From NCBI GenBank assembly GCA_964518905.1, contig CAZFJL010000016.1, positions 2,829 to 66,828 of the forward strand: a stretch of 64,000 nt of DNA, written 5' to 3'. Shown piece after piece: positions 42,648 through 44,831 of the stretch. The position numbers were made by a program, and so were the translations under genes. Positions within the stretch are counted from its first letter, which is position 1, and each line of letters starts with the position of its first letter. The DNA is from an uncultured Geitlerinema sp. GTDB taxonomy: Bacteria > Cyanobacteriota > Cyanobacteriia > Cyanobacteriales > Geitlerinemataceae. The notes beneath the pieces were generated by a model. That model was not told the DNA's origin, did not search any database, and saw nothing but the letters and a program-made list of their open reading frames with translations.

Positions 42648-44831
42648 CTACGTATTATCTGCGCCAAACCAGCGAGCGTACAGTTCGTCATAGGTTCCCG
42701 ACTCGCGGATTGCGAGCAGCGCCTCGTTAACCATTTCCCGATAGGGACTTGCCTCCGGCAGCACGATGCCATAGTTTTGGCGATCGAACACCGACCCCGC
42801 CAGCTCCACCTCACCGGCTCCGGTATGGAGCGCGTAGTGTTGCAGCACCGGGGCATCGTAGACGATCGCGTCGAGCTTGCCAAAGCGTAGAGCTTGATAG
42901 AGATCGTCCGTGGTTTGAAAGCTGGTGGCGCGAATATCGTGGTCGATCAGATATTGCTCCGCCGTGCTGGCGTCGATCGTGCCAACGAGCTTGTCGCGCA
43001 GGTCGCCCGGTTCCGCGATCGTCCCTTCCAGTCGATCGACCGTAAAACTGGTCGTCACGGTTGCGATGAAATAGGCAAAGACAAAATAGCCCGCACACAT
43101 CCACACCAAAGCGAACAGCTTGCCTAACGCTGTACGCGGGGTTTTATCGCCATACCCCACCGTCGTCACCGTCACCGCAGACCACCAAAAAGCATCCCAA
43201 ATCCCCCTGGCATACTGCTGCGGGAAATCATCGTTATGCTTATGCTCGATGAACCAAACAATGTGAGCCGCGATCGCCAAGGTTAAAATAAATAGCCCAA
43301 TGCCGTAGTACAGCTCGGGTGTGGTGAGAATTTGCACCAGCCCTGTAAGGAGTGATTCCACCGGATTGCTGGGCAAATCGCGCACCATAATCTGCAACCC
43401 CGAATCAAAAAACGGATGGGAAAAATCCACCACATCTTCGCGAGCAGCGGTCATACTGACACCCGCAATGCCCAAATCCGATTTTTGTGTCCGGACATTT
43501 TCGATCAGCACAGCAACGGTATCCACATTGCTAATGCGATATTCCAGCCCGAGATTTTTGGCGATCGCTTCCCAGAGTTCGATGCTAAACCCGGTATAGG
43601 AGCCGTCTTCGTAAATCACAAACGGGCTAAAGGATTTCGTGACGACCCGCAAAGGCACTGCTAAGTCGTCAATATTTTGGCGCAGGATGATGTCATCGTC
43701 ACCGTTGCTGCTCTCATTCGCCTCAGCCAGCCAGATATCGACTTGGCTGCGATTGGCTGCGATCCACTCCTGGGCATAACGGCGCAAATTTTCGGGTGTA
43801 TCTTCGCCGTTCATCTGCGCCACGAGCTGCGTTTCAATCACGTCGATCGGAATGAAAACGCGATCGAGCAACCGCGCGATCGCCGGATTGAGCTGCAAAA
43901 ACGCTTGACGAGAGGCCGGTCGGACTGCGGTTTCGGGAAACCCGGTCAGGCAGGGATTGGCGGCGCAGCCTTCGAGGTTGGCGATCGGCTTCGGCAGCGC
44001 CCGCCCGAGTTCATCATCCACGGGCAGCGCTTCGGGAACCGGCAGCCAGCGCGTTTTTGTGCCCGGTTCGAGGATACGGTTAACCGCGTGGGGTTTCCAG
44101 GTAAAAAACAACACCGGTTCGCCGCGATCGTAGCGCTCGATCGTCTGGCGAATTTGGTAGTCGTAATTGTCGCTAATTTGCTCAACGGTATCGCTCAGAC
44201 CGTAGGCTTTGATGTGCCGATCAATCGTCTTGGCGCAATCCCAACCCGCGTTACAGCCGATCAGATCCGCTTTACCATTGCCATCAAGGTCAAATTTCGC
44301 GGCGATCGCGGGATCTTTCAAATCGGCGATCGAGGTGACTTCCAGCGCCTCGGCGGTTTTCCGATCAATGCGATAGCCCTGTACTGCTGGCTCAGTAATC
44401 GGCGTGGACATCGCCAGCGTGACACCCTGGGCGCTGACGCGATCGATGTAGGGATCGTGTTCTGGTAGCCAGGTATCGAGCCAAAGATCTGTTTCCTCGC
44501 GACCCAGCGCTTCGTAAAATTCGTCGGTGGCAAAGACCTGGGGGGTATTGACCGAGTAGCCCAATTCTTCGATCAGCTGACCAACAATCTCGACCTGTAG
44601 ATCACTCGTACGCCACGACGATCGCGCCAAATTGACGCTAACCGGCTCACTACGGGTCACGCTGGGCGCGAGGCTCAACCAAAGCACAGCAAGACACGAC
44701 AACAGACCGAGCCAGATCGCACGCAGAGTTGCGCTGGAAATACGTTGCTTCACCAGATTTGTTCCAATTGGTTCGAGACACCTAGCGACGAAAAGATCGC
44801 AGGTTGATTGCGTTCTACGTTTCGCCAGCAC
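42648..44831 (-). CDS. ProX/OpuAC-like betaine-binding domain fused to a GluR0-type ligand-gated potassium channel (S1, M1-P-M2, S2)
   Basis: The ORF is continuous over 727 codons. Aa ~65-372 are ProX-like ('[47 protein letters not shown]'). Aa ~395-490 are the SBP_bac_3 S1 lobe ('[35 protein letters not shown]', 'SMTAARED'). The 'TVGYGD' filter is at nt 43146-43163. The S2 lobe covers aa ~610-727. The start is uncertain: GTG at 44831 or GTG at 44753. Confidence 0.85.
   Translation of the reverse strand: [727 protein letters not shown]

Follow-up and report, generated by a model that had tools for sequence, protein, structure and literature searches.

Can a bacterial ion channel of the glutamate-receptor type carry, above its amino-acid-binding core, a second domain for reading compatible solutes outside the cell? 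This question is raised by a minus-strand gene in a stretch of 64,000 nucleotides (nt) from an uncultured Geitlerinema sp. (contig CAZFJL010000016.1), which we call the window throughout. An initial annotation, made from the letters of the window alone, had proposed that an open reading frame (ORF) of 727 codons encodes a ProX-type betaine-binding domain fused in front of a GluR0-like, ligand-gated K+ channel. We find that this frame runs through its 727 codons without interruption and that its modules follow one another in the order signal peptide, complete ProX-type domain, flexible linker, lobe S1, M1, pore helix, TVGYGD filter, M2 and lobe S2. To judge from sequence, the case for the fusion itself is solid, while the case for its function looks coherent and is backed by gene context. 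Residue numbers below are those of the 727-amino-acid (aa) ORF; in the 701-aa form, which we favour as the actual product, they are lower by 26. Coordinates are collected in Table 1.

A ProX-type domain ahead of a GluR0-type core

The amino-terminal half had been described as a complete ProX/OpuAC-like periplasmic domain, and profile searches bear this out over its full length. The Pfam family OpuAC matches aa 65-358 (E=1.8e-42), and the NCBIfam ProX equivalog model NF008334 matches aa 53-374 with 273.3 bits, above its cut-off of 215, spanning profile positions 18-329 of 331. Sequence comparison with the PDB aligns aa 64-371 with Escherichia coli ProX in complex with glycine betaine (1r9l; E=9.4e-50). 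The ProX domain of an AlphaFold2 (AF2) model matches the same structure in Foldseek with a template modelling (TM) score of 0.87 (E=1e-27). In E. coli ProX, Trp65, Trp140 and Trp188 reportedly form the aromatic box of the pocket, with His69 said to bind the ligand carboxylate and Cys136 and Cys142 said to form a pair. Counting residue by residue through the HMMER alignment to 1r9l places W121, W197 and W245 of the window protein on Trp65, Trp140 and Trp188, so that the initial assignment of three Trp to the box holds in an actual alignment. The same alignment pairs H125 with His69, C193 with Cys136 and C199 with Cys142. The roles of these residues reportedly go back to Schiefner et al. 2004, work that PMC8601584 cites for Trp65 and Trp188. 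The aromatic box and the carboxylate-binding His are intact, and in sequence, predicted fold and pocket alike the domain is a ProX of the E. coli type.

The remainder of the protein is matched in Pfam by SBP_bac_3 (aa 397-723, split by the pore), Lig_chan-Glu_bd (394-484), Ion_trans_2 (516-596) and Lig_chan (515-614). The ligand-binding core of Nostoc punctiforme GluR0 (2pyy), which together with 1r9l provides the two best PDB sequence matches, aligns in two pieces, 392-489 and 603-726 (E=1.7e-52), and the corresponding core of the AF2 model matches it in Foldseek with a TM score of 0.95. The Pfam domains and this two-piece match agree with the S1-pore-S2 arrangement with a K+ filter that had been read from the sequence, and the recomputed coordinates of the filter are the same as those first assigned. 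T461, R464, S622 and D659 line up with the residues of the Nostoc core that contact the alpha-amino acid. The Arg previously proposed to hold the ligand carboxylate is R464, which sits within [14 protein letters not shown] and aligns with its counterpart in the Nostoc protein. 2pyy, the closest solved relative, is a crystal complex with L-glutamate. The chain ends 4 residues past the WFG motif of S2, and an M4 helix is absent. By these sequence features the C-terminal 335 aa agree with GluR0 in every respect but one, namely that something stands before S1. The whole protein is best regarded as a GluR0-derived variant rather than a canonical GluR0, since a 310-aa ProX domain and a linker lie ahead of S1. 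Pfam gave no match to ANF_receptor or Peripla_BP in the fusion protein at E<=0.01.

In public records this very protein, like its cluster mates, is named 'glycine betaine/L-proline ABC transporter substrate-binding protein ProX' (e.g. NJN60938.1) or given as an ATP-binding cassette (ABC)-type binding protein (NCBI, JGI); the cluster mates are assigned to Oscillatoriales. The NCBI label is presumably driven by the match to the ProX equivalog; it covers the first half only, and the channel half is hidden in these records. A search of the full-text literature (subscription journals being outside its coverage) found no description of an OpuAC/ProX-channel fusion, and no paper pairing 'glycine betaine' with 'GluR0' or 'OpuAC' with 'ionotropic glutamate receptor'. 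An earlier functional characterisation of this architecture, which would have counted against the initial annotation, was likewise not found in the full-text literature searched.

Conservation and reality of the fusion

Searching 5.8 billion protein clusters, we obtained 43 full-length homologues of ~650-740 aa and 37-92% identity, all of them carrying OpuAC, SBP_bac_3, Lig_chan and Ion_trans_2. Their sources are assemblies of NCBI, JGI, ENA and Logan, including contigs 196 kb, 293 kb and 805 kb long. In the alignment of the 43 homologues, W121 and W197 are invariant, as are C193 and C199; position 245 is Trp in 37, Phe in 4 and Tyr in 2, and H125 is found in 39. The channel half is as well preserved, with TVGYGDK, T461 and E465 present in 43/43 and R464, S622 and D659 in 41 each. 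Pairs of family members are on average 53% identical in the ProX half and 51% in the channel half, and the divergences of the two halves co-vary (Pearson 0.76). The ratio of nonsynonymous to synonymous substitution rates (dN/dS) against close relatives is 0.09-0.10 in the ProX domain and 0.02-0.08 in S1, the transmembrane part and S2, the linker alone being relaxed. Purifying selection acts on all modules.

Could an error of sequencing or assembly nevertheless have run two genes, one for a binding protein and one for a channel, into a single frame, or could this be a recent, functionless, pseudogene-like fusion? The only hints in this direction are weak, two short entries (P0045, with ProX and S1 in 488 aa, and P0044) that resemble contig-end fragments. 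Against them stand the single continuous frame in 43 full-length clusters from independent assemblies, the presence of the fusion in at least six species-representative genomes and a dN/dS of about 0.1 in every module. GC content is level along the whole gene, and unfused ProX-plus-GluR0 gene pairs, as would be expected of intermediates, number 0 in 74 control loci. We rejected an artefact of assembly or frameshift because full-length homologues are numerous and independent and because dN/dS is low throughout the modules, and we give this explanation virtually no credence. Retained on many independent contigs, in proteins that range from 92% to 37% identity, the fusion is a single gene, as the initial annotation had read it.

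Distribution and origin

The fusion family is rare. A scan of one genome per species across 185,579 bacterial and archaeal species yielded at least six full-length copies, all in metagenome-assembled genomes (MAGs); these six belong to a cyanobacterium, to three Acidimicrobiia, to the sponge symbiont Candidatus Spongiisocius variivorans and to an unclassified bacterium. About a dozen full-length fusions emerged when 1.84 billion representatives at 50% identity were searched exhaustively with HMMER, the other best matches listed being mostly ordinary GluR0-only proteins of ~330-400 aa. In a tree of the channel half the fused proteins form one clade, apart from 26 GluR0-only channels, a pattern that fits a single fusion event with later spread across phyla. 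A single clade of fused proteins had also been expected for the ProX half; this was contradicted by the separate branch of the clade to which the window protein belongs, which could reflect either fast evolution or domain replacement.

The ProX domains of the fusions belong to a subclass with an extra GCxxxPCxxGF loop, found also in stand-alone ProX-like proteins of other MAG loci, including those linked to BCCT genes; ProX proteins of the E. coli type are without it. The same subclass occurs in other fusions (P0046, P0067, P0122 and P0135), namely tandem double-ProX proteins of ~705-726 aa, a ProX + SBP_bac_11 + VWA protein of 1000 aa and a ProX domain joined to a WD40 propeller in 703 aa, which suggests that this module may be widely reused as an extracytoplasmic sensor. 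One metagenome protein of 1008 aa (P0055) has the order ProX-ProX-GluR0. Its pore is degenerate, with VMSGREGWGKK in place of TVGYGDK, and its second ProX domain is without the first Trp of the box; it may be a derivative acting as a non-K+-selective or non-conducting receptor.

Association with BCCT transporter genes

Outside the cyanobacteria the fusion gene has a recurrent neighbour. In 9 of 10 non-cyanobacterial loci a gene for a BCCT-family transporter lies within ~2 kb of it, compared with 1 of the 74 control loci (mostly GluR0-only) in whose flanks such a gene was found (Fisher p=3e-10, a value inflated by the shared ancestry of the loci). The relative orientation varies, divergent, convergent and co-directional arrangements all being present; in one locus (L089) the two genes share a strand, with 14 bp between the end of the BCCT gene and the start of the channel gene. 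The best match of these carriers is the NCBI model for glycine-betaine-uptake BCCT proteins, with 548-583 bits, scores that lie above the BCCT subfamily cut-off and below the 650-bit equivalog cut-off. This adjacency lends added support to the idea that osmoprotectant sensing is tied to K+ flux. One BCCT locus also has genes with MTTB, DAO and URO-D domains, which may belong to quaternary-amine catabolism.

The BCCT loci usually add a stand-alone ProX-like gene whose product is 43-47% identical to the ProX domains of the channels, as in locus L002, where the order is BCCT, ProX, ProX-channel. Pairs of BCCT and stand-alone ProX genes were noted in L083 (6897-9712), L091 (6316-9020), L002 (6109-8951), L004, L005 and L006; the stand-alone ProX of L083 scores 267 bits on the ProX equivalog model and has a gene for a small MscS-like channel alongside. 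The pairing is odd, because BCCT carriers are not known to employ binding proteins. No betaine ABC permease or ATPase gene was found in the 64-kb window or adjoining the homologues, nor is there a proV/proW partner nearby.

Predicted structure

An AF2 monomer model, built on 41 family sequences, has a mean predicted local distance difference test (pLDDT) of 81.6. It predicts a helix at residues 7-28 in the leader and channel helices at 464-503, 514-530 and 542-576 (701-aa numbering). The leader consists of a KQR n-region, the hydrophobic core [18 protein letters not shown] and then PSVTRS. Homologues have classical Sec-type leaders (ending, for example, in ...ATA/AQ and ...ARA/QA), and the leader of the window protein may be a signal peptide or an N-terminal anchor. 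The ProX domain is accordingly extracytoplasmic and the pore in the inverted GluR0 topology, since the leader puts ProX outside and S1 and S2 are necessarily on the same side.

The segment between ProX and S1 falls below a pLDDT of 50 at residues 350-365 of the 701-aa form. Its length ranges from 25 to 44 aa across the family, measured from the last conserved ProX Trp to the first S1 strand, and its dN/dS is the highest in the protein (0.39 against the close relative L081). With a linker so long, so variable and modelled with such low confidence, a flexible tether seems as likely as a rigid stacking like that of the eukaryotic amino-terminal domain (ATD) on the ligand-binding domain (LBD).

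Proposed function and alternatives

After an osmotic upshift bacteria accumulate K+-glutamate, which is subsequently replaced by compatible solutes and released, as discussed in PMC13099474. Experiments on GluR0 of Synechocystis placed this K+ channel in the plasma membrane, its two termini on the outside, and gave it a role in volume regulation after KCl upshock (PMC13099474). That a binding protein for compatible solutes can work on such a pore was demonstrated by engineering, with EhuB gating the GluR0 pore (bioRxiv 10.1101/2021.01.27.428399), and a natural OpuAC-family protein, CosB, signals to a chemotaxis transducer and not to a transporter (PMC8050422).

By analogy with GluR0 we presume that the fusion protein forms a tetramer in the plasma membrane. 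The S1/S2 clamshell would gate the pore upon binding an amino acid, for which glutamate is the best guess because the closest solved structure is a glutamate complex. The ProX clamshell would close on betaine, proline betaine or a related solute and would then modulate gating allosterically through contact with the S1/S2 layer, perhaps as a tethered docking domain and not as part of a rigid stack. In the presence of an external compatible solute K+ would then follow its electrochemical gradient, in a direction that depends on the membrane potential and on external K+. An amino-acid-gated, K+-selective channel of the GluR0 type, modulated by external betaine-type osmolytes, is in our judgement the moderately probable identity of this protein.

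A channel reading both external glutamate and betaine would sit at the switch from K+-glutamate to compatible solutes, and its physiological role could be to coordinate the K+-glutamate first phase and the compatible-solute second phase of osmoadaptation. It could also provide charge balance during Na+-coupled betaine uptake by the adjoining BCCT carrier. It is tempting to suggest a two-tier receptor in which the ProX osmolyte sensor allosterically controls an amino-acid-gated GluR0 pore and, with Na+-coupled BCCT carriers, switches K+ flux on or off according to the supply of compatible solutes; we put this forward tentatively, rating its chances as close to even but somewhat below. If it is true, the protein would parallel, by convergence, the eukaryotic ATD-on-LBD arrangement, would represent a previously unrecognised class of osmolyte-gated channels and would connect the two phases of osmoadaptation directly at the molecular level.

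Several observations weigh against the identification as an osmolyte-modulated channel. Ligands, gating and the direction of flux are inferred for all members of the family, and ProX-type boxes also bind choline, carnitine, dimethylsulfoniopropionate and related solutes. The AF2 monomer, with a predicted TM score of 0.48, offers no confident interface between ProX and the LBD through which allosteric coupling could run. In the window's cyanobacterial clade no BCCT or other osmolyte gene is found near the fusion. No ProX domain in the family has diverged further than that of this clade (36-43% identical to those of the other clades), and in the ProX-half tree the clade stands on a separate long branch, beside a tandem double-ProX protein. 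For both reasons its ligand may differ from that of the rest of the family. Both trees, of the ProX half and of the channel half, are neighbour-joining distance trees without bootstrap values.

The ProX domain might instead be a tethered device for capturing betaine and handing it to a BCCT carrier or an ABC importer, with the channel mainly as its anchor and K+ conduction unaffected by the ligand state of ProX. Tethered binding domains have linkers of the same long, flexible and variable kind, and relatives from this ProX subclass are fused to ABC permeases (P0048-P0054). Stand-alone ProX genes stand beside BCCT genes in the same loci, and several hosts are Acidimicrobiia, Gram-positive bacteria, which have to anchor their binding proteins. 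However, BCCT carriers are not known to use binding proteins, and most BCCT loci already encode a separate ProX. A role as anchor would moreover leave unexplained the selection on the filter, on the amino-acid triad and on the channel half as a whole, which is at least as strong as that on the ProX half, and also the constancy of the GluR0-core partner within the fused clade. We consider delivery of this kind unlikely.

It is also conceivable that ProX has lost the sensing of a small ligand and serves as a structural top layer for tetramer assembly, dimerisation or stability; a role of this kind is often proposed for the ATDs of AMPA receptors. ProX is placed as the eukaryotic ATD is, ahead of S1, and in the window's clade it evolves faster than the rest, its identities to other clades being 64-43% against 77-53% for the channel half. 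Yet the three aromatic positions, the equivalent of His69 and the Cys pair on either side of the second Trp are retained family-wide, which structure alone would not demand; ProX proteins are monomeric binding proteins, and the gene context indicates betaine handling. We regard a purely structural role as very improbable. Neither alternative accounts for a ProX pocket and a complete channel that are conserved together.

Gene start and feature map

The initial annotation had described a five-part ORF of 727 codons. The open frame and the order of the domains stand, whereas the start probably does not: translation most likely begins 26 codons further downstream, at GTG 44753 (aa 27 of the ORF), giving a product of 701 rather than 727 aa. 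Three lines of evidence point there. Gene calls of four close homologues use the downstream GTG, and the close relatives L081, L092 and L093, on independent contigs, all open there with VKQ[RK]I; in distant members no more than a short basic n-region precedes the hydrophobic leader; and public collections store exactly the 701-aa product. The 727-aa start, being less supported by homologue starts and by the stored product, was set aside, although two homologues (P0005 and P0007) are called with a longer N-terminus, which argues against a strict exclusion of the extension. A scan for consensus promoters and terminators gave no signal above shuffled expectation.

Table 1. Features of the ProX-GluR0 fusion gene and of its surroundings, in window coordinates (nt) and ORF residues (aa)
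Feature	Position (nt)	Strand	Remarks
Uninterrupted ORF	42648..44831	-	727 codons
ProX-GluR0 fusion coding sequence, most likely extent	42648..44753	-	701 aa + stop; GTG start 44753
In-frame 5' extension	44754..44831	-	26 codons up to GTG 44831; probably untranslated leader, non-coding
Signal peptide or N-terminal anchor	44643..44753	-	aa 27-63 (1-37 of the 701-aa form)
ProX-type (E. coli-type OpuAC family) quaternary-ammonium binding domain	43716..44642	-	aa 64-372; putative ligand class
Pocket-residue span	44097..44471	-	aligned to E. coli ProX
W121 codon	44469-44471	-	ProX pocket
H125 codon	44457-44459	-	ProX pocket
C193 codon	44253-44255	-	ProX pocket
W197 codon	44241-44243	-	ProX pocket
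C199 codon	44235-44237	-	ProX pocket
W245 codon	44097-44099	-	ProX pocket
Inter-domain linker	43659..43715	-	aa 373-391; acidic/polar, weakly conserved
Lobe S1	43365..43658	-	aa 392-489; T461..R464-E465 alpha-carboxylate motif, R464 = 43440-43442
Channel core	43026..43364	-	aa 490-602; pre-M1 + M1 helices, pore helix, filter, M2
TVGYGD K+ selectivity filter	43146..43163	-	aa 557-562
Lobe S2	42651..43025	-	aa 603-727; S622 and D659 (alpha-amino contact, in YDAPVL), D659 = 42855-42857
IS630-family insertion sequence	44909..46159		intergenic
Terminal inverted repeats of the IS630 element	44909-44929 and 46139-46159		21 nt
HTH ORF of the IS630 element	45627-46100		overlaps the DDE_3 ORF
DDE_3 ORF of the IS630 element	44938-45774		overlaps the HTH ORF
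DUF192 (COG1430) gene	46394..46933	+	signal-like leader
DICT + CHASE6_C + HD-domain (HD_5) gene	48955..50361	+	
PAS-GAF-GGDEF diguanylate cyclase gene	27514..30018	-	
PsbO gene	19775..20605		

Neighbourhood in the window

Upstream of the fusion gene lie an IS630-family element and then a divergent DUF192 gene; downstream follow genes for an S41 (CtpA-like) peptidase, an O-methyltransferase, a GT2 protein, a DedA/VTT protein and a phosphoglucomutase. The IS630 element, with two overlapping ORFs (one of them with a helix-turn-helix, HTH) between terminal inverted repeats, sits ~155 bp upstream of the likely start of the channel gene and may affect its expression in this genome. L081 and L092 are without the element, and the homology with L081 picks up again on both of its flanks.

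The DUF192 neighbour is shared by five cyanobacterial loci, the window, L081 (9224-9772), L086 (9222-9743), L092 (2-496) and L093 (1016-1585), and is kept even beside a homologue only 47% identical whose remaining neighbours are different. It is missing from L001 and from all the non-cyanobacterial loci. The adjacency may mark either a functional link or an inherited gene order. Two signalling genes lie near the locus, one with DICT, CHASE6_C and HD domains, conserved beside the locus in L081 as well, and the other for a PAS-GAF-GGDEF diguanylate cyclase. The window is a cyanobacterial stretch, with genes for PsbO, a squalene-hopene cyclase and a BMC-domain shell protein, which we take to be carboxysome CcmO-like. 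Osmolyte genes were not found in its 64 kb.

Comparison with known systems

Prokaryotic relatives of ionotropic glutamate receptors (iGluRs) are usually described without a domain above the ligand-binding core, and a two-layered extracellular part is treated as a eukaryotic addition. The fusion family shows that bacteria arrived on their own at a second, putatively ligand-binding layer, drawn from another class of binding proteins. It also suggests a channel that would directly read external compatible solutes, a form of sensing so far assigned to transporters and chemoreceptor systems, and that would be a candidate partner for BCCT carriers via charge balance or K+ exchange.

The closest known system is GluR0 itself (Synechocystis slr1257; Nostoc punctiforme 2pyy). 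The fusion shares with it the S1-M1-P-loop-M2-S2 order without M4, the TVGYGD filter, the Thr/Arg/Asp amino-acid motif and a cyanobacterial host, and about half of the residues of its ligand-binding core are identical to those of the Nostoc protein; an osmotic, K+-related role is on record for the Synechocystis protein (PMC13099474). In contrast, GluR0 proteins have a signal peptide followed directly by S1 and a length of about 350-400 aa, whereas the fusion adds a domain of ~310 aa and a linker, and its family stands as a clade of its own in the distance tree. With E. coli ProX, the binding protein of the ProU ABC importer (1r9l), the added domain shares full-length homology, the fold, the box, His69 and the Cys136-Cys142 pair. 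It differs in its covalent attachment to a channel, E. coli ProX being a free periplasmic component of an importer, and in the GCxxxPCxxGF loop of its subclass.

The likeness to the ATD of eukaryotic iGluRs lies in a bilobed extracellular domain N-terminal to S1, a flexible linker and two tiers; in NMDA receptors the ATD layer binds small modulators. The initial annotation had seen here an ATD-like layout built from an unrelated fold. The layout stands, while 'unrelated fold' goes too far, both domains being of bilobed binding-protein architecture and of different classes, the ATD LIVBP-like and type I (ANF_receptor) and the fusion's domain of the OpuAC family and type II. The fusion is in addition an independent acquisition, is without M4 and has a K+-selective pore, in contrast to the non-selective cation pore of the eukaryotic receptors.

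Binding domains tethered to a membrane protein are also known from OpuA of Lactococcus, with its fused OpuAC domain, and from GlnPQ, with tandem binding domains (6h30), but there the partner is an ABC permease and here it is a channel. The engineered ectoine-gated EhuB-GluR0 channel also has a compatible-solute binding domain on a membrane protein. In that construct EhuB replaces S1/S2, whereas the fusion keeps S1/S2 and adds ProX on top. The ProX-GluR0 proteins would thus be a natural counterpart of engineered binding-protein-gated pores, and could offer a scaffold for biosensors of betaine or choline.

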